Assembly (NCBI RefSeq): GCF_964204645.1
Contig: NC_134032.1
Span: forward strand, 3,434,175 to 3,498,174
DNA from: Tubulanus polymorphus
Lineage: Eukaryota > Animalia > Nemertea
Reading direction: 5' to 3'
Length of the DNA: 64,000 nucleotides
Position numbers and translations under genes: made by a program. Under the pieces are notes generated by a model. That model was not told the origin of the DNA. It searched no databases and saw only the letters and a program-made list of their open reading frames with translations. Of this stretch, positions 21,684-53,307 are shown piece by piece (position 1 is the first letter of the stretch; every line of letters starts with the position of its first letter).

Positions 21684-21707
21684 ATGCGTAATTTTTTTAT
21701 ATAATAA

Positions 21708-22130: not shown

Positions 22131-22149
22131 TAATTTTTTTTCTAAATAA

Positions 22150-22557
22150 ATGGAAGATAAAGTTGATAGTATTGATATTATTCCTCATGATATAAATAAA
22201 ACTAAATTAAAAACATATTTAGAAAAACAAATATTAGAATTTGAAAGTGACTTAAAGATAAAAAAGAAAAAATATTTAAAAAGTAAAATTATATATTATT
22301 TGATTATTAGTGGTTCGGTTACAATTAGTTCTGTAATAACATTTCTAGCAATATTCAGTCCATTAACACCTTTAGCTATATCAATTGGTGTGTTAGGATT
22401 AAGTTCAAGTGTTTTAACCGATATAAGTTCAAAATTAAATATAAAAAGTAATAAAGAAAAAATGAAAACTAATATAAAAGAAATTAATAAATTAAAGAAT
22501 ACACTAGATTATATAATAAGTTTAAATGGCCATATAACAGTTGAAGAACAAGATTAA
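22150..22557 (+). CDS. Two-TM coiled-coil protein, element A (9 aa shorter than B through a stop)
   Basis: Homologue of 34025-34459. Confidence 0.8.
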   Translation: MEDKVDSIDIIPHDINKTKLKTYLEKQILEFESDLKIKKKKYLKSKIIYYLIISGSVTISSVITFLAIFSPLTPLAISIGVLGLSSSVLTDISSKLNIKSNKEKMKTNIKEINKLKNTLDYIISLNGHITVEEQD

Positions 22558-22600
22558 TTATTAAAAGAATTAATAAATTATCAATTTTTTATTTATATAA

Positions 22601-23988: not shown

Positions 23989-24005
23989 ATTTTTTTATTA
24001 TGTAA

Positions 24006-25467: not shown

Positions 25468-25488
25468 TTAATTTTTTTTGTTAAATAA

Positions 25489-26736
25489 ATGAGTGGGAGT
25501 TATATAAGTCCTTCTAAGATTTCTAAAATATCTAATGCTATTAAAGCAGAAAGATCACATCATATAATTACTCATAACCCTTCAAATATTAATCCCGATG
25601 AAACTTTATATGTTAGAATTCCTAGATTAACACAAAATACTTTTTACGTTCCAAACAGTATTTATTTATCAGCCGATATAAAAGTATCTGGTCATGATAA
25701 TAATTATGTTTTTGATAATGTTGGAAGATATTTGATTAAAAAGTTAACAATAAAGATTGGTCCAGAAACAGTTTTCTCATTAGATGATTATAATTTATTT
25801 ATGCATTATAAAGATTTATGGTTAACTAAAGAAAATAGAAATAATATGATATTTCAAGGCATCCAATCAGAAAACCAAAATAAATTAAGATCAGAAGCTA
25901 ATAGCGCAATATTAACTAATGTTGTAGATAAATTGATAAAAAGTATATATGGAAGCAAATATAAAATTCCATTAGACTTTGAATTGATAAATAATAATGC
26001 ACCTTTACATAAATACGCAATTCAAGAAGACGTTATATTCGAAATAACATTTGCTCCTGTAAATGAAATTGTATTATCTAGCGTTGTTAAAGATATGAGT
26101 TGTAAATTATCGAATATATGTTTAGAATATGATACAGTAACTGATGAAAATATTTCAAGTATAATTCAAACTCAATACAATCAAGGATTTTCATTATTAT
26201 ATGATTATATTGATAAATTTAAAACCGTAACTATTAATGCAAATGATGAAATAATTAATGAGAATATTAACTTCCCAAGAAGATCTATTAAAGGTATACT
26301 AATATTTTTTACCATTGCAACATATACTAATGGCGCAATAAATGTTGATAATTATTATAATCCTGAAATAACAAAAGTAGAAATAACTATCGAAGGAATA
26401 GCAAATAAAATATTTTGTCAAGGAATGAGAATGATTGATCAATGGCCAGAAATTAGAAAACATTTTATGAATGAAAAAGTAAAATCATCTGAAAATTGTA
26501 ACATTAATCAAATTGATTATTATACCGGCAATAGATATGCATTATGGTTAGATTTTAGAACAACAGAGGATAATTCATTACATGGTTCTGGAAAAAAACT
26601 ACAGAACACTAAAGATGGAATACAATTATTCATGACAAAGAATAAAGGAATCAAAAATTTTAAAATGCACATTTATATTATATCTGACGCACAATTAAAT
26701 ATCGTAAATTCACAATTAGATAGTGTTATGTATTAA
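25489..26736 (+). CDS. Major capsid protein, double jelly-roll type (only copy in the cluster)
   Basis: 415-aa intact ORF with beta-rich pattern typical of Polinton-like MCPs (LIKKLTIKIG, YKIPL, LSNICLEYD, ALWLDF...HGSG, IYIISDAQLNI); genomic context. Confidence 0.75.
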   Translation: MSGSYISPSKISKISNAIKAERSHHIITHNPSNINPDETLYVRIPRLTQNTFYVPNSIYLSADIKVSGHDNNYVFDNVGRYLIKKLTIKIGPETVFSLDDYNLFMHYKDLWLTKENRNNMIFQGIQSENQNKLRSEANSAILTNVVDKLIKSIYGSKYKIPLDFELINNNAPLHKYAIQEDVIFEITFAPVNEIVLSSVVKDMSCKLSNICLEYDTVTDENISSIIQTQYNQGFSLLYDYIDKFKTVTINANDEIINENINFPRRSIKGILIFFTIATYTNGAINVDNYYNPEITKVEITIEGIANKIFCQGMRMIDQWPEIRKHFMNEKVKSSENCNINQIDYYTGNRYALWLDFRTTEDNSLHGSGKKLQNTKDGIQLFMTKNKGIKNFKMHIYIISDAQLNIVNSQLDSVMY

Positions 26737-26768
26737 AATTTTAACTTTAATAAAAAATCTTATATTAA

Positions 26769-27446
26769 ATGGAAGGAGGTAAAGTATATGAAAGAATCAA
26801 AGCTGATAAAGAAATCAATGATGATTTGTATTATGTAATACCTTATAAAAGAATAAATGAATATATTGGAACATTTTTATTAAACGAATTAAATCAATAC
26901 AAAGAATATTTAATTGAACGTAATAATAATATTGATATAAAAATAGAAGATAATATTGAAACAAAAATAGAAGATAATATTGAAACAAAAATAGATAATA
27001 ATATTGAAAAAAAAATAGAAGATAATGTTATACCTTCTACATCGAATGATGATAAGATTGAAACAAAAATAGAACATAATATTGAACCTAAAATAGAAAA
27101 ATCAAATGTTCAACCAAAAGATAACATCAGATGTATGTATTGTGAAGAAGATTTTGATAATTATAATGATTATTTATTGCACATCAAAAAAGATGAACAT
27201 ATTTTACAATTAGTAAAAACATATGCTAATATATATAAAGATAAATGCAAAGAGGATCAGAATTATTGTGCCTTCTGTAATGAATGTATAACAAAGGCTA
27301 ATTGGGCAAAACATTATAAATTAAAAACTAAAGGTGGAAATGATTCGGCCCATGCAATACAGGTATTTAAATCTTGGTGTGAAAAATGTAAAGAATATGT
27401 AATATATGATAAACAATTGAATCATAAATACTCAATTAAACATATT
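26769..27446 (+). pseudogene. Triple C2H2 zinc-finger protein, element A, 5' part (3' part at 43441-43807)
   Basis: CMYC..H..H, CAFC..H, CEKC..H; 24-bp (IEDNIETK)n repeats at ~26928-27023; split by element B. Confidence 0.85.
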
Positions 27447-27794: not shown

Positions 27795-30700
27795 ATGGAA
27801 GCAAATAAATACTACTGCCCAACATGTAATATCGATATAGATAAATCTCAAAAAGCAAGACATAATAAAACTAGAACACATTTAGAGAATAAATTGAAAC
27901 TAGAATATAAAGATGATATATTAGAAACTAAATTAGAAGAATTAAAGAATGAAAAAGAAACATACAAATGTGATACATGTAATCAATCATTCAGTGATAA
28001 AAGATATTATAATGAACATTTAAAATCTATAAGTCATATTAGAAATAAGAATAATGATATTTTAGGTGAAGATTATTTTGATAATGATAAGGATAAGAAA
28101 CAGAAGACAATTAAAAGAATAAAAAATAAATTAAACAATAAAAGACCATACATGGAAGATGTAAGAAAATATATTAATTCATTAGATAATAAAAAAGATA
28201 TAGAGATAACCGAAGCATTTAAAAGTGATATTGGTCCAGCAGCTATCGAGTTTAAATTTCATAAAGGAAAAACAATAGAAGAAAATAAAAAACATTTAGA
28301 AAATATGAAAGAAATAATAAAAATAATTACAGATGTTGAATATCCTAAAATAAGTATATCTTCTAAAGTAGAGTTTATAAAATCTGAAGATAAACCAATA
28401 TATAATATAAATTCTCATTCACAACATATTATATCTAAACAACATATAGATGATAAATTAAATAAATGTTATAATGAAATAAAAACTAAAATAGAAGAGA
28501 AATATTTTGAAGGATCTGGTTTAATATTTGATGAGATAATATTTATAACTTTACATGTTTATAACACAAAATATAATAAGTTAACTAAATCAAAACCAAT
28601 TGATGAAAATAATTTATCATATTATAAAGATGATAGTATAAATGGAACAAGTTATATTAAATTACCATTTAAAACTAATGGTGTAATAAATATACAAAAT
28701 TTTGATAATAAATGTTTTATATGGGCTATAATAAGTTGTTTACATCCTGCAACTTATAATATTTGTAGATTAACTCATTATAAACAATTTGAAAATAATT
28801 ATAAGATAGATAAGTATCCTGTTAGAATTAAAAATATTCCAAAAATAGAAAGAGATAATAATCTTAAAATAAATGTATTTGATTTAATTAAATTACCAAA
28901 TACAAAAGGAAATAATATTAAACATTATACATTAGAACCTTTATATCTATCAAAAGATTATGATTCAAACGATGTTATAGATATACTATATTATGAGAAT
29001 CATTATATGTGGATTAAACAAATAGATTTATTTTTTAGAACAGAAAGTGATCACCATAATAAAATATATCTATGTAGAAAATGTTTACATAAATTTAGTA
29101 ATGAAAGTACATTATTAAATCATAAACAACTATGTGATAATCATGATTATTGTAAATTAGTTTTACCAAATGAAAAGGATAAAATATTAGAATTCAAAAA
29201 ATATGATTACAAAAATAAAGTACCATTTGTAATATATGGAGATTTTGAATCATTAAATAAAGAATTAACAGATAAAGATAGAAAAGATATATATTATAAA
29301 AGAAAGAAATTAAATTCTAATGAAAGTGATTATTCAGATGAACCACCAATAACAAATACAATTAAAAAGATTCATCAATCAGCTGCAGCTTTTGGGTTAT
29401 ATATTAAATCTGATTATCCAGAACTAATTGAAAGTGAATATTATAATTATAGAAATGAAAATGTTATCAATCATTTTTGTGACTTATTAATTGAATATGA
29501 AATAAGATTTAGTAAATTATTGAATACAAATAAAGAAATAATTATGACAGAAGAAGATAAAGAAGAATTTGAGTTTGCAGATAAATGTTATTATTGTGAA
29601 AAACTATTTAATTATAAAGATAAAAAAGTAAGAGACCATGATCATTTGAATGGTAAATTTAGAGGTGCAGCGCATGAGGCTTGCAATTTACAAGCCAAAA
29701 AAGAAAATTTTGTCCCCATTATATTTCACAATTTATCGGGGTATGACGCGCATTTATTCATTAAGCAACTGTGTCATAAAATAGAAGAAATTAATAATGA
29801 AATAGAAATATTAAATTCAAAAAGATTAAAAGATAACAAAGTATCAACTTATAAATTTAAAATACTAGCTAAAACATCTGAAAATTATATTTCATTTCAA
29901 TTTGGTTGCATTAGATTTTTAGATTCTTATAGATTTCTAGCAAGTTCATTAGATAATTTATCAAAATCATTAGTTGATGATGAATTACAAATATTAAAAC
30001 AACATTATCAAAATAATAATGATTTTAAATTAATGAGATATAAAGGTGCAATTCCATATTCTTTCTATAAAAATCATAATGATTTTAAAATAACTGAATT
30101 ATTGAAAGAACAATTCTATGATGAATTAAAAAATGAATATGTTAAAGATGAAGTATATAATAGAACATTGAATATTTGGAATCATTTCAAAATAGAAAAT
30201 CATGGACAATTAGTAGATTTATATTCAAAATCAGATGTATTATTATTAACCGATATATTCGAAAGGTTTAGAGATGTAAACCTAAAATATTTTAATATTG
30301 ATCCATGTCATTGTTATTCATCACCAGGATTAACATGGGATTGTGGTTTAAAATTTACAGATATAAAAATGGATTTGTTAACAAATATAGATCAATTACT
30401 ATTATTTGAAAAATCTATAAGAGGAGGAGTTTCAGGTGTATTAGGTGATAGATATTTCAATGTAAATGATAACCCTGGATATAAGTTATTATATATAGAT
30501 GCAAATAATTTGTATGGTTGGGCAATGATGGAACCACAACCTTATGGGATGTTTGAATTAACTGAAGTTTTACAAATTGATAAATTTGATTGGAAGAAAA
30601 GAATTCTAGATATTGCAGATGATTCAGATACTGGTTACTTCTTCGTTGTAGATTTAGAATACCCTGAAAATATTAAATTCAAATCTAGAAATCTAGCATA

Positions 30701-31823
30701 TTGTCCCGAACATAAAACTGTTAAACATGAAGAATTATCAAATTATCAAAAAAGAATTAAACCTGATAATCATATTCATACTGAAAAGTTAATGGTAACT
30801 CAAGAAGATAAATATAATTATGTAGTACATTATAGAATGTTGAATATTTATTTGAATCAAGGAATGATATTAAAAAAAGTACATAGATATATTTCATTTA
30901 ATCAATCTAAGTGGTTAGAAAAATATATAGATTTTAATACTACACAGAGAACTAAATCTAAAACTGATTTTGAGAAGGATTTTTTTAAATTGATGAATAA
31001 TGCATTTTATGGAAAAACATGTGAAAATATTAGAAATAGAAATGATATTGAGTTAGTTAGTAATGGTAAAAGGATAAGACATTTGCAATCATATCCGAAA
31101 TTTATAGGCAACAGAATATTCGATGAAAATTTAGCTGCAGTTAAAATGAAGAGAACTTCTATGAAGTTCAATAAACCAATCTATGTTGGAGCTGCAATTT
31201 TAGAATTATCAAAGTTATTAATGTATCAATTTTACTATAACATATTACAACCTCATTTTGGGGAAAAGCATATTGAAATATTATATTTTGATACTGACAG
31301 TTATATACTAAAAATCAAGACAAATGATATAACAAAAGACTTAAAAATATTAAAACACCATTTTGATTTTAGTAACTATCCTAAAAATCATGAATTGTTT
31401 AGCAATGATAATAAAAAAGTTCCCGGTAAATTCAAAGATGAATTAGGTGGTGAAGAAATGATAGAGTTCATTGGTATTAGATCTAAAATGTATAGTTATA
31501 AAACTAAAGAACATGAAGCTAAAAAGTTAAAAGGAATAACCAAAAGTGTAGTAGAAAAGAATATTCATTTCAAAGATTACATCAATTGTATATTTAATGA
31601 AGAAGTTAGAAAACATAAAATGAAATGTTTAAGATCTGAAGATCATGAAATGTATATTGAAGAGATAGAGAAGATAAGTCTAAACCCATTTGATGATAAA
31701 AGATATATTTTAGATGATGGAATTCACACAATCGCGTATGGTTGCAATTTAGATGAATATATAAAATTCAAAAGAGAAGAAACAAAAGAAAATGAGATTA
31801 TGAAAAGGATTCTAGCGTGTTAA
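27795..31823 (+). CDS. polB: Protein-primed-type family B DNA polymerase with N-terminal Zn fingers, OTU-like domain and endonuclease VII-like insert
   Basis: 1342 aa intact; DNKCF...ENHY, YGDFES, CYYC...RDHDHLNGKFRGAAHEACN, FHNLSGYD, YIDANNLYG, KLMNNAFYGK, YFDTDS. Confidence 0.95.
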   Translation: MEANKYYCPTCNIDIDKSQKARHNKTRTHLENKLKLEYKDDILETKLEELKNEKETYKCDTCNQSFSDKRYYNEHLKSISHIRNKNNDILGEDYFDNDKDKKQKTIKRIKNKLNNKRPYMEDVRKYINSLDNKKDIEITEAFKSDIGPAAIEFKFHKGKTIEENKKHLENMKEIIKIITDVEYPKISISSKVEFIKSEDKPIYNINSHSQHIISKQHIDDKLNKCYNEIKTKIEEKYFEGSGLIFDEIIFITLHVYNTKYNKLTKSKPIDENNLSYYKDDSINGTSYIKLPFKTNGVINIQNFDNKCFIWAIISCLHPATYNICRLTHYKQFENNYKIDKYPVRIKNIPKIERDNNLKINVFDLIKLPNTKGNNIKHYTLEPLYLSKDYDSNDVIDILYYENHYMWIKQIDLFFRTESDHHNKIYLCRKCLHKFSNESTLLNHKQLCDNHDYCKLVLPNEKDKILEFKKYDYKNKVPFVIYGDFESLNKELTDKDRKDIYYKRKKLNSNESDYSDEPPITNTIKKIHQSAAAFGLYIKSDYPELIESEYYNYRNENVINHFCDLLIEYEIRFSKLLNTNKEIIMTEEDKEEFEFADKCYYCEKLFNYKDKKVRDHDHLNGKFRGAAHEACNLQAKKENFVPIIFHNLSGYDAHLFIKQLCHKIEEINNEIEILNSKRLKDNKVSTYKFKILAKTSENYISFQFGCIRFLDSYRFLASSLDNLSKSLVDDELQILKQHYQNNNDFKLMRYKGAIPYSFYKNHNDFKITELLKEQFYDELKNEYVKDEVYNRTLNIWNHFKIENHGQLVDLYSKSDVLLLTDIFERFRDVNLKYFNIDPCHCYSSPGLTWDCGLKFTDIKMDLLTNIDQLLLFEKSIRGGVSGVLGDRYFNVNDNPGYKLLYIDANNLYGWAMMEPQPYGMFELTEVLQIDKFDWKKRILDIADDSDTGYFFVVDLEYPENIKFKSRNLAYCPEHKTVKHEELSNYQKRIKPDNHIHTEKLMVTQEDKYNYVVHYRMLNIYLNQGMILKKVHRYISFNQSKWLEKYIDFNTTQRTKSKTDFEKDFFKLMNNAFYGKTCENIRNRNDIELVSNGKRIRHLQSYPKFIGNRIFDENLAAVKMKRTSMKFNKPIYVGAAILELSKLLMYQFYYNILQPHFGEKHIEILYFDTDSYILKIKTNDITKDLKILKHHFDFSNYPKNHELFSNDNKKVPGKFKDELGGEEMIEFIGIRSKMYSYKTKEHEAKKLKGITKSVVEKNIHFKDYINCIFNEEVRKHKMKCLRSEDHEMYIEEIEKISLNPFDDKRYILDDGIHTIAYGCNLDEYIKFKREETKENEIMKRILAC

Positions 31824-31851
31824 TCAATTTCAATAAAAATTTGTATAATAA

Positions 31852-32193
31852 ATGGAGAGTAAACAAGTACACAATGAATTCTTAGATAGAATTAAAGATA
31901 CTTCAAACGTCAAATCTGTAGATTATAAATTTAAAAAACTAACTGAGTTAACAATTCACAAGAAATATTTAATTACTAACATTGAAACAATTACTAATAA
32001 ATATGGAGATAAATTAGTAATTCATTTAGAATATGAAGGATTAAAAGGAAATAAATATAAATTCAGAACTTATTTACCAGATAGATTTCATAGATTATCA
32101 AGTGAAGATTTAGAAGAATTATGTTCTGGAGATTTCTATTTCGTATACAAAGGTAAGAATGAAAAAGGGCACCATGAAATAGATTTCGAATAA
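31852..32193 (+). CDS. Small OB-fold-like (putative ssDNA-binding) protein
   Basis: 113 aa, KKLTEL...KKYLI...TNKYG...YLPDRF...FVYKG pattern seen in Polinton-associated small proteins; function inferred. Confidence 0.6.
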   Translation: MESKQVHNEFLDRIKDTSNVKSVDYKFKKLTELTIHKKYLITNIETITNKYGDKLVIHLEYEGLKGNKYKFRTYLPDRFHRLSSEDLEELCSGDFYFVYKGKNEKGHHEIDFE

Positions 32194-32210
32194 GAAAATA
32201 TGTAAAATAA

Positions 32211-32966
32211 ATGGTGGAATTAAAAGAATACAGAATATATGTTGATTCTAGAAAACTTACAAATTATAAATCACATAATTTACTAGTACAATTAGGCAGA
32301 GAATTCAAGAATTGTGTAGATTTAAAATTAGTTAATATAAGTTTATGTAATTCTTTTTACAATGTATCGGATAAAACTTTTGAACATAGAGGGTTTATGA
32401 TTTATATGAGAAATAAAGATAAATGGTTTCATATATTTTTAAAACCAGGATTATATAATTTAGAATCATTAGCACAGGAAATTAATAGAAGAGCTCGGTT
32501 GAAAATCGGGGGCAATTCTGTATTTGAAATTAGATTTAATAAAATTGATAGTACTAATAAAATAAGAATAAAGATATCTAATGAACAACATAAATTAATG
32601 GTAAACAAACCACTGGCTAAAATGTTAGGAATTAAACCGCTTACAGTTACTGGAAACGCAGAAGGCAGCTCAAATATAATACCTTTTACGCACTTTTATA
32701 TTTATTGCAATTTAATCGAGCCCACAAAAACTTTCGAAGCAACTAAAGAAACAATTTGTAGTTCTAGTATACTAAATATTTTACCGCTAAAAAATGTTAA
32801 ACAATTTGGAACTCAAATAAATTATAATTTAACAGAATGTGATTTTAAACCTTGCATTCCTAAATTTAATAATTTTAAATTAGAAATAAGAAATCATAAT
32901 GGATACTTAATTGATTTAAATAACTTTCCTGTGATATATGAATTAGTTATAAGATGTAGAGAGTAA
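32211..32966 (+). CDS. Minor capsid protein (penton, single jelly-roll)
   Basis: 251 aa; IYVDSR N-terminus, PGLYN, IYCNLI, SILNILP, IDLNNFPVIYELVI C-terminus typical of Polinton/virophage mCP. Confidence 0.8.
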   Translation: MVELKEYRIYVDSRKLTNYKSHNLLVQLGREFKNCVDLKLVNISLCNSFYNVSDKTFEHRGFMIYMRNKDKWFHIFLKPGLYNLESLAQEINRRARLKIGGNSVFEIRFNKIDSTNKIRIKISNEQHKLMVNKPLAKMLGIKPLTVTGNAEGSSNIIPFTHFYIYCNLIEPTKTFEATKETICSSSILNILPLKNVKQFGTQINYNLTECDFKPCIPKFNNFKLEIRNHNGYLIDLNNFPVIYELVIRCRE

Positions 32967-32982
32967 TTTTATTGATATATAA

Positions 32983-33336
32983 ATGAATATAACTGTTGGA
33001 CCGAGTATATGTTTTGGATTTGATTTTAAACGTGAGAAAGAAATGAAATTTAATATTAATGATGTAATAACACATATCAAAAATATTGCATTTTCTAATG
33101 AAACAACATTTGAGTATGAAACAACAATAGATAAAGAAACTTTAAATGTAGAAAAGATTACTAATTTAATTAGAGAATCTTTAAGATTTTATGAAGTAGA
33201 TGAAGATTTTATAATCGATGATATTAAAAAAATAATTGAAATATATACAAATGAAACTAGTAATGAAATAAATGTTGAATTAATCATAAATAAGATAACT
33301 AAATATTTTGATGATAGTAATTTTTTTGATAAATAA
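32983..33336 (+). CDS. Hypothetical viral protein (117 aa)
   Basis: Intact ORF, conserved upstream motif, homologue in A. Confidence 0.75.
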   Translation: MNITVGPSICFGFDFKREKEMKFNINDVITHIKNIAFSNETTFEYETTIDKETLNVEKITNLIRESLRFYEVDEDFIIDDIKKIIEIYTNETSNEINVELIINKITKYFDDSNFFDK

Positions 33337-33558
33337 ATGAGTGATAATAAGTGGATAATAACTGGATTATATAATGGCGCATTACTATCAGTTGGAACTG
33401 TTGGTTATTCAATGGTATTAAAAAAAGTATTCAAAATGGGAAGTGTTAATGTTGATAGATTTGATATAAATGATATTTTGAAATTAACATTAGCAGTTAC
33501 TTTATCTAATTTAACTATTGATTATTTGGAAAAACAAAAATATATTCCTCCCATATAA
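33337..33558 (+). CDS. 73-aa putative membrane protein, element B
   Basis: Same protein as 21462-21683 with synonymous differences. Confidence 0.85.
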   Translation: MSDNKWIITGLYNGALLSVGTVGYSMVLKKVFKMGSVNVDRFDINDILKLTLAVTLSNLTIDYLEKQKYIPPI

Positions 33559-33582
33559 ATGCATAATTTTTTTGTTAAATAA

Positions 33583-34005
33583 ATGACATCTGCAATTATA
33601 ACTATTATAGGATCAGCAATTGTTAACGCTTTAGCATTTACTGGTGGTGGATATTTATTTAAACATATTGATAAAAATAGTTCATTAGGAGAACAAAGAA
33701 GACATAACTTAGCGTTAGAGAAATATAATAAAGCTGCAGAAGAATATAGAGAAAAGAGACAAAACTATATGGATTACATCAATAAAGAATTATATGATCA
33801 GAAGATTTCACATAGAGATTTTCAATCAGTTGATGATGCAATGAGTTTATATAACGCAGTAACCAATAAAGAAAAATTACATCTATACAAACCTAAATTA
33901 TCAGATTATTATACCCCGAGTAAAGAACAACAGAAATATGAAATAATTTGGATTTTAGGTGGAACAGTTATTGTTATATTTGTTGCTTATAAGTTCACTA
34001 ATTAG
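33583..34005 (+). CDS. 140-aa putative membrane protein, element B
   Basis: One residue different from A copy; two hydrophobic segments. Confidence 0.85.
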   Translation: MTSAIITIIGSAIVNALAFTGGGYLFKHIDKNSSLGEQRRHNLALEKYNKAAEEYREKRQNYMDYINKELYDQKISHRDFQSVDDAMSLYNAVTNKEKLHLYKPKLSDYYTPSKEQQKYEIIWILGGTVIVIFVAYKFTN

Positions 34006-34024
34006 TAATTTTTATTCTAAATAA

Positions 34025-34459
34025 ATGGAAGATAAAGTTGATAATATTGATATTATTCCTCATGATATAAATAAAACTAAATTAAAAACATATTTAGAAA
34101 AACAAATATTAGAATTTGAAAGTGACTTAAAGATAAAAAAGAAAAAATATTCAAAAAGTAAAATTATATATTATTTGATTATAAGTGGTTCGGTTACAAT
34201 TAGTTCTGTAATAACATTTCTAGCAATATTCAGTCCATTAACACCTTTAGCTATATCAATTGGTGTATTAGGATTAAGTTCAAGTGTTTTAACTGGTATA
34301 AGTTCAAAATTAAATATAAAAAGTAATAAAGAAAAAATTAAAACTAATATAAAAGAAATTAATAAATTAAAGAACACACTAGATTATATAATAAGTTTAA
34401 ATGGTTATATAACAGTTGAAGAACAAGATAAATTATTAAAAGAATTAATAAATTATTAA
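34025..34459 (+). CDS. 144-aa two-TM coiled-coil protein, element B
   Basis: IIYYLIISGSVTISSVITFLAIF and LAISIGVLGLSSSVLTGI flanked by charged helices. Confidence 0.85.
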   Translation: MEDKVDNIDIIPHDINKTKLKTYLEKQILEFESDLKIKKKKYSKSKIIYYLIISGSVTISSVITFLAIFSPLTPLAISIGVLGLSSSVLTGISSKLNIKSNKEKIKTNIKEINKLKNTLDYIISLNGYITVEEQDKLLKELINY

Positions 34460-34476
34460 TTTTTTTAGTTATATAA

Positions 34477-35784
34477 ATGGTAGATAGTTTTCCAAAAGCT
34501 TTCCAATACAATAAATCAATTAAATATAATATTCCAGCAATAGATTTTAATAAAGATATTACATATAGAAATGAAGTTTTAGATTCATTAACTAATTTAG
34601 AAATTTATGTTAATGAATCACAGTTTTTTATTTCTAAAATGGAAAATATATTTAATACACATGAAGTTACTTTTACTCGAGATGAATATCATATATATAA
34701 AGTAAAATCTAATATGAAGTATTGGCAGAATCAATTAAATTTTGCTGTTTATTGTGCAACAACAGGATGTGGAATAAGTTGGAATGATCATTTAAATAAC
34801 TTAGATAAAAATTTGAAGTATTCTGATTTAAAATTAATTCACACAATATTTAGATTTCACACATATTTTCAAATCAGAATAATATTAAATGAATTAGAAT
34901 GTCCTTTACCCGGGTCTAAATATTTTAAAGAATTGGATAATAATATTAATATATCCAAGTTTTATAAAATATGTAATGAATTTAATATAAATATTAATTC
35001 CGATTTTAGAGCGCATGGTAAATTGCAAGGTGTTGGTGAAGAGTATGAAATAAAAAGAATTGATTATATGCATAGAATTTCAGCTTATCATAATTATAAA
35101 ATTGATAATAATAATGGTTGGGTTTATTTCATTTTAGAAAATGGTGAAGGTTTTACAAAATCAGGTATACAAAGAATAAATCAATCTATTAGAATTTATT
35201 TGATATGTATTTTAGGCGCTCAAGTTGAAACAAGATCCCCAATAATTGGAAATGATAACACTTCATTCGATGCGCAGAAACAGTTTAAAGTTTTATTTGA
35301 AGATTCCATACATAATGATAAAAATAGATCGATTCCAGAAAACATTGTAAGATATCAAAATTATTTAGATAAATCTCATGTAAGACTTAATTATTGTATA
35401 GGCCCTAATCTATTAATTATTTCTAATGATTTAGTATTAAAGATGGGAAACATAATTGGTTATAATAATCTAATTAAAACTGCAACAATAAATAATTCAT
35501 TTGGATTAAATGATATAAATAAAAAGATTATTACTGCTCCAAAATTAATGGAAGGTGAAAAAAATAAAAAACATATTCAATCAACTGAAACTAAAACTAA
35601 GAATATTAAATTGGATAATGATTCCAAAATAAAAGATTATAATACATCAGAAGATATAAAAACTGATAATATTCAACATGATATAATTAAACTAAATGAT
35701 AATAATAAATCCCATGAAAATACTAAATTAGCTTTAACTTGTATAGGAATTGTAATCGGAGGAATATTATATTTTAAATTTTAA
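34477..35784 (+). CDS. 435-aa conserved viral protein with C-terminal TM anchor
   Basis: YWQNQLNFAVYCATTGCGISW motif; C-terminal LALTCIGIVIGGILYF. Confidence 0.85.
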   Translation: MVDSFPKAFQYNKSIKYNIPAIDFNKDITYRNEVLDSLTNLEIYVNESQFFISKMENIFNTHEVTFTRDEYHIYKVKSNMKYWQNQLNFAVYCATTGCGISWNDHLNNLDKNLKYSDLKLIHTIFRFHTYFQIRIILNELECPLPGSKYFKELDNNINISKFYKICNEFNININSDFRAHGKLQGVGEEYEIKRIDYMHRISAYHNYKIDNNNGWVYFILENGEGFTKSGIQRINQSIRIYLICILGAQVETRSPIIGNDNTSFDAQKQFKVLFEDSIHNDKNRSIPENIVRYQNYLDKSHVRLNYCIGPNLLIISNDLVLKMGNIIGYNNLIKTATINNSFGLNDINKKIITAPKLMEGEKNKKHIQSTETKTKNIKLDNDSKIKDYNTSEDIKTDNIQHDIIKLNDNNKSHENTKLALTCIGIVIGGILYFKF

Positions 35785-35800
35785 TTTTTTTATTATGTTA

Positions 35801-36817
35801 ATGGATGTAGAAGGTGGAGAAGATTATGAAATGGGAGAAATGGGAAATAATAATGAGGGATATATTGATGATGAACCACAACCCGATTTTAATGAAACTA
35901 ATATTGATAATGATGATGAATCAGCATATAATTCTAATTTAGCAGATAGTGGTTATAAAGCCCCATCAACAGATGAATTTGATAGAAGAACTAGATCGAG
36001 AATAAATCCTGAAAATGAAAATCAAGGTTTAAAAAAGGAAGATTTAGAAAATATTGGATTTATATATAAGTTTCAAGATGTATTTGAAAGATCTGGATAT
36101 AATATAAATTACAGAGGCGCCAGACTTTTAGTACAAGATTTAAAGTTTTTAGATGGTGAATATTATTATCATTTGAAAGATGATTACTATATTAATATCA
36201 CTAATCAAAGTACAAAACTAAGTAAAATATTAGCAGAATCAACTTTGCTTAAGTTAGAACCAGATAGAATTAAGAGAATAAGTAATAGTAATGAAATAAC
36301 TGATGTTACACAAGAAGAAAGAAATAATAATATAAGAGTATTTAGTGAAAGAATTGATAACTTATTTAAAATAATCGATAATAATTTAGAAACGGAAATG
36401 GAAGAGAATAGAGATAGATTAAGATCTTCAACACCTGAAACATCGAGAAGAGACACTCAACAAATTGATAATGATTCAAGTCAATTACAATTAGTATTAG
36501 AAAAACAAATTGATAGATTAAGAGATTCATTTGACGAAGAGATGAATAGTATTGGAATAAATCGAATACAATCTTTACTAGAAAAAGGATTACTTGATTT
36601 AACTGATGATGAATTAGAAGCATTTCCTGAACAAACACGTAGAGAAATTAAAGGTATGCAAGAATCAGCTGATAAAATTGCGCATGAAAAAAGTAAAAGA
36701 GATATTAAAATTAACATTTTAGAAAAAGAATTAACTGATAAAAATAAAGAAATAGAAAAATTAAAGTCTGATTTAGACCATCAAGTAATTGATGAAATAG
36801 AATATAGGATAAGATAA
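35801..36817 (+). pseudogene. Coiled-coil membrane protein, element B, 3'-truncated by deletion
   Basis: Homology with A ends at IDEIEYR (~36808) and jumps into the Zn-finger gene repeats. Confidence 0.85.
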
Positions 36818-37676
36818 TATTGAAACAAAAATAGAAGATAATATTGAAACAAAAATAGAAGATAATGTTATACCTTCTACATCGAATGATGATAAGATTG
36901 AAACAAAAATAGAACATAATATTGAACCTAAAATAGAAAAATCAAATGTTCAACCAAAAGATAACATTAGATGTATGTATTGTGAAGAAGATTTTGATAA
37001 TTACAATGATTATTTATTACACATCAAAAAAGATGAACATATTTTACAATTAGTAAAAACATATGCCAATATATATAAAGATAAATGTAAAGAGGATCAG
37101 AATTATTGTGCCTTCTGTAATGATTGTATAACAAAGGCTAATTGGGCAAAACATTATAAATTAAAAACAAAAAGTGGAAATGATTCAGCCCATGCAATAC
37201 AAGTATTTAAATCTTGGTGTGAAAAATGTAAAGAATATGTAATATATGATAAACAATTGAATCATAAATACTCAATTAAACATATTGGTACAGATAATGT
37301 AATAGAAAATCCAAAAGTTATAAATCCAAAATTTAATAATAAGAATATATTAGATTATCGGTGGTATAGAAAAACATTTATAGATTATTTATTGAGTAAT
37401 GATATAGTTACCATATTGAAAAAGTTAGATAACTTTAAACCAAATGTAACTTATGCAATGAACTTATTTGAACTTAAATATGATGATTTTAGAGAATTGT
37501 TAAATAAACATCCATCTAAAACTGAAATCGAAAATTATATTCCAAAAATATTTTCAAGAAAAACATTCAGGAATTATAAACTTGGGAATTATTTAGGACC
37601 TATACCAATAAAAATACAAAGGGATATATATTTAGAATACAATAAGCTTAAAGAAAAATATGAAAATGAAAATTAA
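36810..37676 (+). pseudogene. Zinc-finger protein, element B, 5'-truncated
   Basis: Contains the uninterrupted equivalent (CATATTGGTACAGATAATGTAATAG) of the site where B sits in A. Confidence 0.85.
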
Positions 37677-37680
37677 AAAG

Positions 37681-38294
37681 ATTATAGAATTCACTGTATA
37701 TTGATGGATGAATGGATGAGTTGGAAGAGTTGGATGAGTTGGATGAGTGGAAGAGTGGATGAGTATAATAATATATATATTTTACTTTTTAACACATAAA
37801 TTGGAAGAATAGTGAGTATAAATATAATATTTTTATTCTTTATTGAATTTAACACAAATTAAATTTAACACAATATATATTTATTATTATATGATATTTA
37901 TTATTTATTATTATATGACATTTATTATTTATCATTTTATTATTTATTATTTTATAAAAATATATTTATTATTATATGAAATTTATTATCTGTCATTTTA
38001 TTATTTTATAAAAATATATTTATTATTTATCATTTTATTATTTATCATTTTATTATTTATTATTTTATAAAAATATATTTATTATTATATGACATTTATT
38101 ATCTGTCATTTTATTATTTTATAAAAATATATTGATTATTATATGACATCTTCAAATCAAACTCTTACTGTTTTAAAAATAAAAAACATATGTAAATTAT
38201 ATATTATTACACTCTTCCATTCATCCACTCTTCCAATTCATCCAATTCATCCAATTCATCCACTCATCCATCAATATACAGTGAATTCTATAAT
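37681..38294. repeat. Central fold-back between convergent gene blocks, element B
   Basis: Inverted arms ATTATAGAATTCACTGTATATTGATGG(ATGAGTTGG)n ... (CCAATTCAT)nCCATCAATATACAGTGAATTCTATAAT around an AT-rich low-complexity spacer. Confidence 0.9.
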
Positions 38295-38310
38295 ATTTTG
38301 AATTAGGATT

Positions 38311-38925
38311 TTATTTTATAAATTTATATTCATATGGAAATTGTAATCTCATTAATAATTTTGAACCTTTATTATTTTTTAATTTATTCATATATTCATC
38401 ATGTAATTCAGTAGGTATAATTTGATTTTCTTCCAATGATTGTTGCATAGATTTTCTATCTTTGTTGTAGAATAAAACTAGAAATCTTATATTCTCTCTA
38501 AAATCTTTCACAATTGAATTATATTTCTGATTTAAAACCCATGTTGTTATCCCAAAATGTCTACCAGAGAAAGCTAAATAACATAACTCACTTTCTCTAA
38601 TTTTAGAATCATGTAAATTTGCGCAATCATCGATAATAAATAATGTATTAGATCCTTTATAAATATCTAATGTAATTTTTATACAATTATCTAAATTATC
38701 TTTCACTGTTTTAGAATTTAATATAATAAACTTTTTATCTTTAAAAACTATATCTCTATTATACGTTTCATTCATTTCATAAGTAGGACAGAATAATATT
38801 ATATTATCAAAATGATTCTTATAAATAGTTTCTAATAAATCTAATATGAAGTGTGTTTTACCGCAGTTTGTAACTCCAGTTATTAACATATTATGTGGTT
38901 CAAATATAAATAAATCTTTATTCAT
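38311..38925 (-). CDS. A32/FtsK-like genome-packaging ATPase, element B
   Basis: Walker A GVTNCGKT, Walker B LFIIDD, GRHFGITTWVLNQ. Confidence 0.92.
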   Translation of the reverse strand: MNKDLFIFEPHNMLITGVTNCGKTHFILDLLETIYKNHFDNIILFCPTYEMNETYNRDIVFKDKKFIILNSKTVKDNLDNCIKITLDIYKGSNTLFIIDDCANLHDSKIRESELCYLAFSGRHFGITTWVLNQKYNSIVKDFRENIRFLVLFYNKDRKSMQQSLEENQIIPTELHDEYMNKLKNNKGSKLLMRLQFPYEYKFIK

Positions 38926-40005
38926 TTATTCTTTTAATTTTACTAGACAAAATCCATTCATTAAATTTATCATCATATCCTTCATATTTCACCAAAGAAT
39001 ACTTTTTTCCTTTAAGAGTTTTTGTTTTCAATACTTTTTCTATTTTGTATTCTATTTCATCTGGATTTGGTACTAATGATAATTCTTGTTCATAAAAATA
39101 ACCTAATATTTCTTCATCTTTTAAATCAAACAATTTATAAACAAATGGTTTAGTTAATATTATCTTTTTAATTTTAAATATTTCTTCAGTAAAATTTGGG
39201 GTATAACCTTTATAAAATGTTTTTCTATATTTAGAAATTCTAACGTGTTGTCCTATTTTAAATTTAGGTTCTCCAAAATCATGTGTAACAAACGCTCCAT
39301 ATAAATTATTCCAAACTATTTCTGAATTTTCTTCTTTTCTAGCTTATATAGGTTTCATATTTATAGAACTATGTTTAGAATTATTATAACCTTTCACTAA
39401 ATCTTCTAATACATCGATATATTTATATGTTTCATTAGCGGTGAAATATTTCCACATTCTAGTTTTCAATGTTTTATTAAATCTTTCTATAACAGATGCT
39501 TTTTTATCTGAATGTGTTGAAAAATATTCTACATCGTTATCAGTTAATAGTTTTTTAAAATGTTTGTTATAAAATTCTTTACCTTCATCAAATTGTATTT
39601 TATCTGGGATAGCTTCTTTAAATATTAATTTGAAAGAATTTGTAACTTCTATACCAGTTTTATTTTTAATCGGGATACTCCATGCGTATCTACTGAATAT
39701 ATCTATAACATTTAGTATCCAAAAATATCCTTTGTTATATTCTTCAAAGATTTCATGTCAATCAAATCAGCTTGCCATTGTTGGTCAATATATGAAACCA
39801 TTACTTTTCTTGTTAAATATTTTTTATCCATCTTTTTATGAATTTGATATGTTGGTTGATTTTGTAACCATGATTTTAATTCACTATATTTTATATCACC
39901 ATTATCGGATTTAATTTTATTCCATAATTCTGAAACACTTGAATATGATACTTCACTTTCTGGGTTATAATATAAATCTCTTAAATATTGTTCTTTTTTC
40001 ATCAT
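38918..40005 (-). pseudogene. Retroviral-type (rve) integrase with chromodomain, element B
   Basis: WQADLIDM, frameshift near 39745, nonsense near 39344, C-terminal chromodomain. Confidence 0.9.
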
Positions 40006-40008
40006 ATT

Positions 40009-40368
40009 TCAATCCATTAATAATATTTTAGATTTAGTTTCAATGGTTTTATGATTTGACTTATTTTCTGGTATGATAGGTTTATTATCATTAGAATCAT
40101 CTTTATCATCGGATTTGAATTTTGATTTATATATTACACCGGATAATATAATAACTGTGATTAACCCAATTGTAATATATAAGTAATTATAAGATTCAGC
40201 TGTGCTGAATCTATTAGATGGATTATTATTTGAATCAATATCAGATTCATTTATATCAGTTAATTTCTTTTTCTTAGCTTTTTTTAATTCTGATGATCTT
40301 TTACCTAATTCTCTTGCCCATTTAATTTGTTTCTCGGATCTAGCCTTTTTCTTAACTCCATCACTCAT
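40009..40368 (-). CDS. Basic single-TM protein (119 aa), element B
   Basis: RSEKQIKWARELGK plus YITIGLITVIILSGVIY; homologue in A. Confidence 0.8.
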   Translation of the reverse strand: MSDGVKKKARSEKQIKWARELGKRSSELKKAKKKKLTDINESDIDSNNNPSNRFSTAESYNYLYITIGLITVIILSGVIYKSKFKSDDKDDSNDNKPIIPENKSNHKTIETKSKILLMD

Positions 40369-40966
40369 TTATTTTAGTTAATTTTTGTTCTGATTCATTT
40401 TCTGTTTCGATGTTTTGTTGTAGTACATCTGTTTCGTTCTTACCTGATTTATATTCCATATGCTTGATGTTCGAAAATGTTATGACGCCAGTAGAAATTA
40501 ATGTCATAACCGATCCTAATTGAAATGAAGCGTATCCAACCCATTTTTGTAATTCAGTCATAACTAAGTAGTCATTTTTCAAATCATTATATAATTTATT
40601 TTCATCATCAATTGGTATTAACTGGTTACATAACTTAGAATAACATTTGACAATACCATCTGAAATAGAATCATTTATTCTAGCTAATCTTGACTCTTCA
40701 TAAATCTTAAAATATTTTTTTACTTTTTCTTTGTTCATATTATCTAATTCTTGAAAAGTTATTGTTTTACCAATAAACTCTTTAGTTTTTCCACTCGCAA
40801 TCAATAGTTCTAGATGATGCTTACAATATAAATAGTACTCGTAATCAATATTACTATCAATTTTATTATCACATTTAGTTGCCACATTATCATTATCATC
40901 TGTTAAACCTAAATCTTCCAAAGTTTTTTCAACTTTAATATTATTCTTATTCGATTTCTTAGACAT
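40361..40966 (-). CDS. Hypothetical protein with C-terminal hydrophobic segment (201 aa), element B
   Basis: Intact, conserved core with 46264-46881. Confidence 0.8.
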   Translation of the reverse strand: MSKKSNKNNIKVEKTLEDLGLTDDNDNVATKCDNKIDSNIDYEYYLYCKHHLELLIASGKTKEFIGKTITFQELDNMNKEKVKKYFKIYEESRLARINDSISDGIVKCYSKLCNQLIPIDDENKLYNDLKNDYLVMTELQKWVGYASFQLGSVMTLISTGVITFSNIKHMEYKSGKNETDVLQQNIETENESEQKLTKINE

Positions 40967-41192
40967 TTATATTAGAGAAATTTAATAAGAATAGTATTAT
41001 AAGTATTCTTCAAATGATACTAGCTAGTTAAAGTTAAAGAATTCTAGTATTAGTTATTGTTTTTTTTAGTATTTTTTATTTGTGATATAAAGTATTCTTT
41101 TTTGAAAAGAAAATATTAAAAATTAAAATAGAAATAATAGATAGTTGAAGGTATGTAATTTTTATTATATTTTATTTGAGATATATTATTCT

Positions 41193-41861
41193 TTAACCAC
41201 TCATTAAAGACTCAACGTATTGTTCATTATTTGGATTATTATTCCATTGATCAATAAATTTCTTTGCCTTTGTTAACTGTTCTAAATATAACTGTAAATC
41301 TAGTTTATTAGATTTGATTTGATTTTCTTTCTTTTCTAAAGGTCTTAAATTTTTCCAACCCCAAATAAGTTTTTTATTGTATTCATCATTCATGTTAAAT
41401 TTAGATATTGGTAACACGTGATCAATGTGGTAATAATCCCCATAATTATCTATATTCATTTTATCATCGAATTGAAATATAATCCATGATTTGAGAAATT
41501 CATCTGAACAACCCAACAAATTAGATAGGGTTTCTGAATGCGTTTCTTTGTTGAATAATTTTGATACTTTAGATCTTAAGCATTGTTTCAATCTAAAATT
41601 AAGATCTGTTTGATATCTTTCTCTCATATATTTTGTCATATAATAATTATAATGTTCTATATTATCTTCTCGATATTGTTTAGTATATAGTTTAGTACAA
41701 GTTTTACAACAATATTGAAAACCATCTTTGCTAATCTTACGCTTACTAAATTCTGTTAAAGCTAATTTATCTAATTCACATTTAGAACACTTCTTGTAGT
41801 ATATGTTTATAACACCAGTGTTATTTGTAATATTGATAATTTGTGGTTGTTCTGGTTCCAT
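41193..41861 (-). CDS. HNH-type endonuclease with N-terminal Zn ribbon, element B
   Basis: KKCSKC...CCKTC; LLGCS; HIDHVLP...KNLRPL...EN..KSNK. Confidence 0.85.
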   Translation of the reverse strand: MEPEQPQIINITNNTGVINIYYKKCSKCELDKLALTEFSKRKISKDGFQYCCKTCTKLYTKQYREDNIEHYNYYMTKYMRERYQTDLNFRLKQCLRSKVSKLFNKETHSETLSNLLGCSDEFLKSWIIFQFDDKMNIDNYGDYYHIDHVLPISKFNMNDEYNKKLIWGWKNLRPLEKKENQIKSNKLDLQLYLEQLTKAKKFIDQWNNNPNNEQYVESLMSG

Positions 41862-42004
41862 TTATTATATGTATTTTTTTTACTAAATTGGTTAATAATT
41901 TTAGAATCCTCTTCCATTTCTCCGACCAACGTCATCCTTTTTCATTCCTCGCTGCTTTTGATAAGTTGTTTCGATTCCTTGATATCTAAATAATACCACT
42001 GGGT

Positions 42005-42390
42005 AAAAGCGCGCATTCGTGCGCGGTTTTTCTTAATGCGCATGCGTTAAGCATAATTATATATTCATTCTATAAATTCTGTAAAATAGAAACGACACAT
42101 GCGTTACATGCGTCACATGCGGCCATTGATGTCCGGTTTTGCTTAATGCACATGTGTTAATCATAATAGAAACAACCGATATGAAATATTTAAATAATAC
42201 CACTGGGTAAAACCGCTCTTATAGGAGCGTTTTTGCTTAATGCGCATGCGCTAATCATAATTATATATTCATTCTATAAATTCTGTAAAATAGAAACGAC
42301 CGACATGAAATATCAAAACGTGTTCGCATTAGGCAAACCGCGCATTCATGCGCGCTTTTGCTTAATGCGCATGCGCTAATCATAATTGAA
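42005..42390. repeat. Tandem double-hairpin units (4 in B; 2 in A at ~47985-48190)
   Basis: GC-rich stem-loop followed by CTTAATGCGCATGCG(T/C)TAA(T/G)CATAAT repeated. Confidence 0.8.
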
Positions 42391-43145
42391 ACGAATTATT
42401 ATTGAAACGACTGAACATAAAAATTCACCAAACAGATTTACACAATACATTATACAATTTGTTCAGTCGTTTCTTCCAATACATCATTTGATTTCTATAA
42501 ATACAATTTATAATTACAAACATTTTTTCAATTGTTGGTAAATATTTAACTACAACAACAAATGTTAAACTTAATCATTGGAGTCTCAATGTTTTTGAAA
42601 TTCTTATATAGTTTCTTCATCGATCTTTTGGTGATTCTATTGGTTCGATATCCATTGCTGTTGATTCCTCAGTCAGAAAGAGTATCTTGAGTTTCTCTAT
42701 CACTTCTTGATGCGTATGACGTTTTATTAATCTAAAAGATATTAGCGGTAACTCTAACCATCTAAAATATATACTAAATACACTTAAATATATCTAAAGG
42801 TTTCGTATTTAATAGCCTTAATAACTACAACAAACAGTACTTACATTTAGATTTATAATTGTATACTATAAACTCCTTATTTCGTTTCGAAAGATAGAAT
42901 ATCCTGAGCACAATATTACAGCGTATATCCATTTCCGGGGCGATTTCTAGAATGAACACGTCGTTGATTATGCCACGTCATCTAGTTCCGGTTCGAGAGT
43001 GTTCTACACGTTTCTGATTATGACGTGTCATAATGTCTCGTCGTTATAGTAACAACTGTAACAGCTGTGAATTTATAGATTTATTCTATAGCTCTGTACA
43101 TTGAATGTATATAGGTTAAAATAGAATCATTTTCTAGTATAAACA

Positions 43146-45881: not shown

Positions 45882-46271
45882 TTAATCCATTAATAATATT
45901 TTAGATTTATTTTCATTTGATTTGTTTTCTGGTGGTTTATTGTCTGGATAACGAAGTTTCCGTTCATCATTATCATTATCACTTTCATTATTATTAAATT
46001 TATATTTATATATTACACCAGAGAATATAATTACTGTGATTAATCCAATTGTAATATATAATTTATTATTACTTCCAGCATTAGAAGAATTAGATAAATT
46101 ATTATTTGAATTAATACCAGATTCATTTATATCAGTTAATTTCTTTTTCTTAGCTTTTTTTAATTCTGCAGATCTTTTACCTAATTCCCTTGCCCATTTA
46201 ATTTGTTTCTCAGATCTAAGCTTTTTCTTAATATCACCGTGTGGGTGTTTAACGGTACCATCTTCACTCAT
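45882..46271 (-). CDS. Basic single-TM protein (129 aa), element A
   Basis: Homologue of 40009-40368. Confidence 0.8.
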   Translation of the reverse strand: MSEDGTVKHPHGDIKKKLRSEKQIKWARELGKRSAELKKAKKKKLTDINESGINSNNNLSNSSNAGSNNKLYITIGLITVIIFSGVIYKYKFNNNESDNDNDERKLRYPDNKPPENKSNENKSKILLMD

Positions 46272-46881
46272 TTATTTTACTTAACTTTTGTTCTGATTCA
46301 TCTTCTGTTTCGCCGTGTGGATGTTGTGCGGCACCATCTGTTTCGATCTTACCTGATTTATTATCTTTACATACTATAGGTTTAATGTTAGAAAATGTTA
46401 TAACTCCAGTCGAAATCAATGTCATAACCGATCCTAATTGGAATGAAGCGTATCCAACCCATTTTTGTAATTCAGTCATAACTAAGAAGTCATTTTTTAA
46501 ATCACTATATAATTTATTTTCATCATTAATTGGCATTAGCCGGTTACATAATTTTGAATAACATTTGATAAAACCATTAGAAATAGAATCATTTATTCTA
46601 GCTAATCTTGACTCTTCATAAATCTTAAAATATTTGATTACTTTTTCTTTGTTCATATTATCTAATTCTTGAAAAGTTATTGTTTTACCAATAAACTCTT
46701 TAGATTTTCCACCGGCAATCAATAGTTCTAGATGATGCTTACAATATAAGTAGTATTCATAATCTATATTGTTATTAACTTGAATAGAATTAGAAACAAC
46801 TGTATCTTTATTATCACTTATACCCAAATCATCTAATGTCTTTTCAATATCAATATTATTCTTATTAGATTTCTTTGACAT
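46264..46881 (-). CDS. Hypothetical protein (205 aa), element A
   Basis: Homologue of 40361-40966. Confidence 0.8.
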   Translation of the reverse strand: MSKKSNKNNIDIEKTLDDLGISDNKDTVVSNSIQVNNNIDYEYYLYCKHHLELLIAGGKSKEFIGKTITFQELDNMNKEKVIKYFKIYEESRLARINDSISNGFIKCYSKLCNRLMPINDENKLYSDLKNDFLVMTELQKWVGYASFQLGSVMTLISTGVITFSNIKPIVCKDNKSGKIETDGAAQHPHGETEDESEQKLSKINE

Positions 46882-53265: not shown

Positions 53266-53307
53266 CCCGTCAAACTGTTGCGTCACACTTTCATCCGTTC
53301 TCACTTT

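Follow-up and report, generated by a model that had tools for sequence, protein, structure and literature searches.

The 64,000-nucleotide stretch of Tubulanus polymorphus DNA analyzed here (the window; NC_134032.1, positions 3,434,175 to 3,498,174) contains several copies of a polinton whose sequence supports a predicted protease-less element with a conserved, capsid-linked and apparently co-regulated set of membrane proteins. The set comprises seven gene families, which in copy B of the element lie between positions 33,337 and 40,966. The usual picture of polintons is of an adenovirus-like, lipid-free particle matured by a protease. To date, no Maverick-Polinton virion has been reported in the literature; from the sequence, we infer that these proteins are present in the virion.

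Five of the genes are clustered on the plus strand of copy B and encode a 73-aa protein (33337–33558), a 140-aa protein (33583–34005), a 144-aa protein (34025–34459), a 435-aa protein (34477–35784), and a coiled-coil protein (35795–36817). The other two are on the minus strand and encode proteins of 119 aa (40009–40368) and 201 aa (40361–40966). In the order given, the names of Buck et al. for these families are Nispumem, Fus, Slatt, Titinmem, Cah, Lardeb, and Ayleven. Transmembrane (TM)-like segments were called by hydrophobicity scales only, at a Kyte-Doolittle 19-aa peak of at least 1.6, across sets of homologues. The family rows are open reading frames (ORFs) from related loci, filtered by length, de-duplicated and in most cases free of ambiguous residues; the alignments were thinned further by hand. 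A TM-like segment was found in 11/13 members of the 140-aa family, 18/18 of the 144-aa family, 85/117 of the 435-aa family, 18/18 of the coiled-coil family, and 8/11 of the 119-aa family. At the same threshold, the controls gave 1/18 for the major capsid protein (MCP) and 2/32 for the penton. Five families are therefore clearly of membrane type, and the 73- and 201-aa families, which fail the threshold, are marginal. The original prediction had assigned TM-like segments to all seven ORFs. All of these ORFs are indeed present at the lengths it gave, including second copies of 129 and 205 aa in copy C (45882–46881, minus strand, from ORF reading and copy comparison), and the assignment holds for the five.

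The 140-aa family has an invariant Gly/Ala-rich N-terminal hydrophobic peptide, a charged helical middle and a C-terminal tail anchor, and is a candidate membrane-penetration protein. The 144-aa protein is a two-TM, SLATT-like protein; SLATT_fungal was matched by 3 of 18 family members, below the Pfam cutoff. The 435-aa protein consists of a globular domain of ~360 aa, a disordered linker and a C-terminal tail anchor. Of 120 homologues, 82 have a hydrophobic tail, and none has a hydrophobic segment at the N-terminus. Its structure model is confident (pLDDT 91, pTM 0.91), and the fold comparison of this model returned no match, with no fusogen among its hits. The 119-aa protein has a basic N-terminal helix and a single central TM segment (shuffle p 0.003 for the hydrophobic segment). 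The 73-aa protein has two weakly hydrophobic, Gly/Ala-rich helices, and the helical 201-aa protein has a marginal C-terminal hydrophobic segment. No cleavable signal peptide is evident in the alignments of these families, and none resembles a signal-peptide-led glycoprotein. The label Ayleven for the 201-aa family might be read as poxvirus A11 (VMAP), which is a guess: 0 of 17 members matched a poxvirus Pfam family at E ≤ 1, and Pfam thus gave it no backing. A11 is required for virion membrane formation, according to reference titles (PMC6013026).

The coiled-coil gene is damaged in the window. In copy B, it has been cut to 340 aa by a deletion and has no hydrophobic segment (Kyte-Doolittle maximum 0.37), and in copy A a frameshift leaves it at 395 aa. 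Where the protein is intact, in relatives, three hydrophobic segments form its end. The earlier reading of the unit spanned the deletion in copy B; therefore, the coiled-coil protein of ~486 aa that it described is a composite of copies. That reading also placed five membrane-protein genes between the penton and the MCP, whereas the MCP of copy B is deleted. Nevertheless, both features exist in the relative L002, in which these five genes keep their order and are followed by an intact 485-aa coiled-coil gene and the MCP.

Compared with L002, the ratio of nonsynonymous to synonymous substitution rates (dN/dS) is 0.07 for the 73-aa gene, 0.16, 0.26, and 0.27 for the 140-, 144-, and 435-aa genes, 0.25 for the 201-aa gene, and 0.54 for the 119-aa gene, with 0.21 for the MCP. 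The 73-aa protein, which is identical in copies A and B, is under the strongest purifying selection of the set. Purifying selection acts on six of the seven genes, all but the coiled-coil gene.

Related loci were obtained from a metagenome scan, as the best 80 of 493 confirmed stretches. All seven families and the MCP are found in 10 of the 18 loci of at least 7 kb, in three gene orders, and the MCP, 435-aa gene, and coiled-coil gene are present in all 18. In most of the incomplete loci of this size, the missing genes would fall past the contig end. In 80 viral contigs that carry a protease (840,735 bp), neither this MCP nor any of the seven families was detected; the penton and ATPase profiles match 10 and 11 of these contigs, respectively. 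Homologues at E ≤ 0.001 number 2,493 for the 140-aa protein and 2,093 for the MCP, the few named ones including Elysia marginata, and the MCP lineage comprises about 2,100 clusters at 90% identity. Six of these 140-aa/MCP homologues (P0150, P0168, P0189, P0206, P0278, and P0304) are labelled as proteins of Candidatus Thiodiazotropha metagenome-assembled genomes, probably reflecting host-derived contamination of symbiont bins.

The original prediction that no adenain-like maturation protease is encoded was borne out. A clan-CE profile was built from 113 domains of 120 IMG/VR loci; an alignment of 38 of them matches adenain (1avp, E 1.9e-5) and S273R of African swine fever virus. In a held-out test, all 113 domains (22 clusters) were recovered with 41.8–106.1 bits. 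Adenain was not detected in the window, where the best of 1,241 six-frame segments scored 4.0 bits, nor in the 80 related loci, where the best of 8,621 segments scored 10.0 bits. Profile-profile comparison (hhalign) of clan CE with the 435- and 201-aa families gave a probability of 0.2–0.3%. The training set was chosen by motif, and a protease without that motif could escape. On these sequence comparisons, the element has no detectable adenain, and none of its ORFs appears to be a divergent one. A protease of another kind may be present, however. The N-terminal region of PolB (28700–28950) contains a D-x-x-C motif and a downstream His, read by eye, for which Pfam made no call. In the abalone relative, Buck et al. 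2024 (supplement to PMC11071296) give this region the label Otu, so the element may have an OTU-like protease domain in PolB that is not a capsid adenain.

The element has the hallmarks of Polintons/Mavericks in the broad sense, namely a protein-primed PolB, an rve integrase, an A32 ATPase, an MCP (copy A only), and a penton. By sequence, it is assigned to the Polinton-3_NV/Meld6842 type: it combines a Polinton-3_NV-type MCP and the absence of adenain with the Slatt, Titinmem, Cah, Fus, Ayleven, Lardeb, and Nispumem set, the named proteins being matched by eye. The MCP of locus L057, which shares 34% identity with that of the window, agrees with Polinton-3_NV at 24 of its first 30 residues, as judged by eye. 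Polinton-3_NV likewise has an ATPase, and P-3_NV, N1, N1A, and N1B_NV are protease-negative in Table S1 of Krupovic 2014 (PMC4028283). Polinton-3_NV-type MCPs fall outside the Mavpol clades, beside PgVV, whose group lacks a protease (Barth 2024, PMC11296320). For Polinton-3_NV, neither the upstream motifs nor the set of membrane genes is mentioned in the available portions of these two papers. The Meld6842 list in supplement file 2 of Buck et al. comprises PolB, Slatt, Glycot, Penton, Titinmem, Cah, Hexon, PacK, Integrase, Fus, Ayleven, Lardeb, and Nispumem, but no Adenain. With the abalone relative refMeld LC027333 alongside, its names match all seven window families by eye. The gene order differs, and the window subgroup lacks a Glycot-like gene and has TAAATG starts. 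The word transmembrane occurs 0 times in the main text of Buck et al., where no discussion of the seven genes was found, and no key to the gene names was found in the supplement text covered. Hence, published tables and labels already record the lineage, the protease absence and the gene list, and the present combination is not unexpected for this lineage, contrary to what had been supposed. Not found in print, in the searches made, were the reading of these genes as a core membrane module without signal peptides, a confidently modelled tail-anchored 435-aa protein without a fold match, and TAAATG/T-tract starts resembling poxvirus late promoters in one part of the lineage.

Adintoviruses and group 1–2 Maverick-Polintons share with the element a protein-primed PolB, an rve integrase with a chromodomain, an A32 ATPase, an MCP, a penton, and membrane-active accessory genes (Starrett 2021, PMC8502044; Bellas 2026). 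However, adintoviruses carry adenain together with PLA2X or GasderminX/cupiennin, whereas the element has no adenain, another MCP lineage and other membrane genes. PLA2X, GasderminX, and cupiennin had no Pfam match among the window ORFs, and a motif search of the Starrett supplement gave 0 matches. Adenain being a defining feature of Adintovirus and Mavpol groups 1–2, the element is not an adintovirus by that measure. PgVV/Gezel-14T and protease-less polinton-like viruses (PLVs) have a related MCP, no maturation protease and helper-virus promoter use, but they differ in their algal hosts, tyrosine recombinase, lipase, and an early motif of mimivirus type in place of TAAATG (Yutin 2015, PMC4642659; Roitman preprint). 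The available text of these two sources gives no membrane block like that of the window. For nematode Mavericks, membrane-bearing polinton particles have been proposed, as here (Jeong 2023, PMC10748475). They keep PRO and a dedicated fusion protein, for which no counterpart was found in the element, and that paper leaves the question of envelopment in other polintons undecided.

The apparent co-regulation of the set is suggested by its gene starts. Of 16 gene starts, 13 carry TAAATG, compared with 48 of the element's 581 ATGs (p 4e-12); with three stop-start overlaps removed, the count is 10 of 13 (p 3e-9). A promoter-like motif of T-tract, spacer, and TAAATG precedes the 73-aa gene (33318–33339, plus strand) and the MCP (25470–25491, plus strand), and also the 117-, 140-, 144-, and 435-aa genes. 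A T-run of at least 4 lies at −22 to −11 before the five clustered genes, the MCP and the 117-aa ORF. A-runs precede PolB, the 113-aa ORF, the penton, the zinc-finger ORF, the ATPase, the 119-aa gene, and the HNH gene. The upstream motif previously noted as common to the membrane genes and the MCP is therefore confirmed, but it is not specific to them: TAAATG is element-wide, and the T-tract also stands before the soluble 117-aa ORF. Vaccinia late promoters have a T-containing core, a 5–7-bp spacer and TAAAT(G/A), so that the initiator overlaps the start codon much as in the window (PMC5294985), and virophages make use of the promoters of their helpers (Yutin 2015, PMC4642659; Roitman preprint). 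The T-tract and A-tract classes may accordingly be likened to poxvirus post-replicative promoters, as a resemblance only. An A-rich host translation-start context together with gene packing could explain part of the TAAATG pattern.

Among 59 relatives with at least two resolvable starts, TAAATG is found at half or more in 11 and not in the other 48. The positive loci include some of 38–44% GC, and the negative ones include the AT-rich L056 (0/4) and L057 (0/7), the latter from the Polinton-3_NV-like subgroup and in this respect unlike the window. The positive loci are confined to one half of the tree but do not form a single clade. The membrane module predates the TAAATG trait and is more widespread. 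The motif occurs at nearly every start in window positions 27795–41861 and in L002, L008, L016, L019, L022, L035, L039, L041, and L051, the trait being close to all-or-none between relatives.

What the set does is less certain. The reading that we favour, at a little under an even chance, is a double-jelly-roll virion with an internal membrane, in which the seven-gene set builds a bilayer inside the capsid. Several virus-encoded membrane proteins linked to capsid genes, a feature of such virions, are found here (five clear, two marginal). A membrane-scaffolded particle of the PRD1 kind would need no adenovirus-type maturation protease. Tail anchors or hairpins would place the proteins in an intracellular membrane, probably one derived from the endoplasmic reticulum (ER). 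This membrane might be linked to capsid and genome by the tail-anchored 435-aa domain, the 73-aa helical hairpin, and the 119-aa protein, whose basic end would face the DNA. Opening or shaping the donor membrane might fall to the 201-aa and SLATT-like proteins, and the 140-aa protein and the coiled-coil protein with its three hydrophobic segments might breach the host membrane at entry. These roles for single genes are speculative. In poxviruses, small conserved proteins open the ER membrane for a jelly-roll scaffold (PMC6013026).

Several observations weigh against an internal membrane. The TM threshold is reached in only 1 of 17 members of the 73-aa family, whose two helices have column averages of 1.25 and 1.07. 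The 201-aa protein peaks at 1.34 with a family column average of 1.07, also below threshold, and the count of 10/17 for its family is inflated by ORF extensions from upstream ATGs. The coiled-coil gene has a dN/dS of 0.81 against L002, and the 119-aa gene lacks a T-tract. Sequence and fold searches found no similarity to membrane proteins of tectiviruses, poxviruses or further nucleocytoplasmic large DNA viruses (NCLDVs). The 435-aa gene served to choose the related loci, which also supplied the sequences for the profiles and include several near-duplicates. The protease-bearing controls are IMG/VR contigs with an integrase profile match in 1 of 80, and so are not animal polintons. Finally, the ~66-nm capsids of PgVV/Gezel-14T come with no mention of a membrane in the available text (Roitman preprint; PMC4642659).

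A lipid-free, non-enveloped capsid is unlikely but is the alternative to be taken most seriously. Here, the hydrophobic proteins would be internal lytic or penetration proteins (like adenovirus VI/X and Buck's Macc) and holin-/SLATT-like egress proteins, replacing PLA2X, GasderminX, and cupiennin of adintoviruses. Indeed, the 73-aa protein and the coiled-coil C-terminus look amphipathic, and adintoviruses have membrane-active accessory proteins without a known bilayer (PMC8502044). Holin-like and SLATT groups, common in polisuviruses, are likewise read as lytic-egress or defence genes (Barth 2026). Yet seven linked genes are many for lysis alone, and a tail anchor on a large globular domain, like a single central TM segment with a basic end, points to resident membrane proteins. 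Lytic peptides in adenovirus-like capsids are normally freed by a protease, and no protease that could do so was detected here. The same SLATT reading bears on non-structural effectors, that is, pore-forming or abortive-infection genes acting against the host cell or a co-infecting large DNA virus. The SLATT-like match of the 144-aa family agrees with this, but the set is near-universal in the lineage, is interleaved with MCP, penton, and ATPase, and shares the upstream motif of the MCP. Defence cargo is usually patchy, and we regard this explanation as improbable.

Hardly better placed is an outer envelope on a budding particle, with the 140-aa protein, as the label Fus suggests, acting as a minimal class-I-like fusogen. 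The architecture of that family, from invariant N-terminal peptide to C-terminal TM segment, fits such a role, and fusion proteins are reported in nematode polintons (PMC10748475). No signal-peptide-led, Cys-rich ectodomain is evident in the alignments, however, and neither a sequence match to solved fusogens nor a fold match for the 435-aa protein was obtained. The proposal of a membrane-containing or enveloped virion with its own entry/fusion module is thus upheld for the membrane protein set, its enveloped and fusion part being weaker than an internal membrane. An artefact, in which AT-rich codon bias mimics hydrophobic ORFs or one ORF is an unrecognised adenain, might be suspected from the AT content of ~77% and from single-sequence shuffle p values that are not significant for the 73-, 201-, and 435-aa proteins. 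It is largely refuted and very improbable, given that the same segments are kept in relatives of 50–60% GC, that the genes are under purifying selection, and that the protease profile and hhalign values lie far from those of true clan-CE domains (4 versus 42–106 bits; 0.2–0.3%).

A broader proposal goes beyond the internal-membrane virion and, taken whole, is doubtful. It holds that a very abundant invertebrate lineage of integrating polintons has a PRD1/NCLDV-style internal membrane from its own seven-protein kit, including a new-fold tail-anchored protein and a possible A11-like protein. The window subgroup would be a virophage-like satellite of a pox-like cytoplasmic virus, using T-tract/TAAATG late-type and A-tract early/intermediate-type promoters. 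By analogy, the element is possibly a satellite of a pox-like virus, the TAAATG starts supplying helper-type promoters by resemblance only. Against pox-like promoters, the poly(A)-signal and TTTTTNT tests did not discriminate, and a position-blind motif count was weak. No RNA polymerase gene was recognised among the element ORFs. The TAAATG motif offers a cheap and direct test of animal polintons as virophages of pox-like viruses, and the 435-aa protein is a good structural target. Should an internal membrane indeed be built, the lineage would connect membrane-containing tectiviruses with NCLDVs as a living eukaryotic link, with a genome of about 15 kb.

In copy B, the gene order on the plus strand is PolB, the 113-aa ORF, penton, the 117-aa ORF, and the five clustered genes; on the minus strand, it is ATPase, split integrase, and the 119-, 201-, and 222-aa genes. 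The protein-primed PolB (27795–31823, plus strand, 1342 aa) was recognised from PolB-type motifs read in the ORF. Its N-terminus contains zinc fingers and an endonuclease-VII-like domain, the only domains called by Pfam, and homologues are present in 4 loci. It is followed by a soluble 113-aa ORF (31852–32193, plus strand), conserved in L002 without a family match, and by the penton/minor capsid protein (32211–32966, plus strand, 251 aa). The latter is assigned by family and position, is present in 58 of the 80 related loci, and has a counterpart named Penton at the same position in Meld6842 (PMC11071296). The soluble 117-aa ORF (32983–33336, plus strand) occurs in close relatives only and has a T-tract and TAAATG start. 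The MCP (25489–26736, plus strand, 415 aa) lies in copy A and is the sole one in the window; Capsid_N was matched by 16 of 18 family members, indicating similarity to the NCLDV capsid N-terminus. Further along copy B are a C2H2 zinc-finger ORF remnant (36975–37676, plus strand, from ORF reading), an A32-like packaging ATPase (38311–38925, minus strand, 204 aa; Pox_A32 E 1.6e-12), and an rve integrase with a chromodomain (38921–40005, minus strand). The integrase is split in copy B, and the rve (E 5.6e-8) and Chromo domains were matched with copy C. A putative 222-aa HNH endonuclease (41193–41861, minus strand) has a weak HNH_4 match (E 0.038).

Some relatives differ around this core. L002, the closest long relative, encodes a nucleoside/thymidylate-kinase-like protein (10340–10981, minus strand; PHROG thymidylate kinase, E 9e-20) that was not recognised among the window ORFs. 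A penton-adjacent gene with weak tail-fibre matches (L010:55–900, minus strand, and cluster C14, 13 loci) is probably Buck's Glycot and a candidate receptor-binding spike; it was not seen in the window's subgroup. In L011, L028, and L070 (cluster C37), the same capsid and membrane module adjoins a large ORF with polymerase-like motifs that does not cluster with the window PolB, which suggests replicase swapping.

The copies form an AT-rich island at ~13,500–53,000 of the window (about 20–26% GC versus 32–43% in the flanks), made up of copies of a single polinton that are in part broken and lie in tandem or inverted. At least four copies, with 86–92% identity and each with different lesions, are found in 13500–53000, and host-like insertions lie near 14800–16900 and 52940–53960. 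The five-gene block of copy A (21462–25232, plus strand; ORF reading and copy comparison) has intact 73- and 140-aa genes and frameshifted ORFs of 135, 414, and 395 aa. Relative to copy A, 2,056 bp (24915–26970) are missing from copy B at a junction at 36808–36811, located by comparison of the copies and by read departures. The deletion takes out the coiled-coil C-terminus (its membrane end), the whole MCP, and the beginning of the zinc-finger ORF. A separate DNA run labelled as the same species has 13,351 reads (from 1,934 Mb) on 4.7 kb, and 72 reads depart from the window sequence at 36808; therefore, the polinton family looks high-copy (uncalibrated) and the deletion looks specific to one copy. 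With the copies tandem, inverted, and rearranged, no clean ends with terminal inverted repeats or a target-site duplication were defined. GC-richer dispersed repeats of ~65 nt (TTAATGCGCATGCG core) at 41980–42650 and 48000–48430, at the right end of copies B and C, may be terminal or origin repeats. An intronless host gene for a rhodopsin-family G-protein-coupled receptor (54209–55273, plus strand), some 1.3 kb away from the cluster of copies, points to an animal host.

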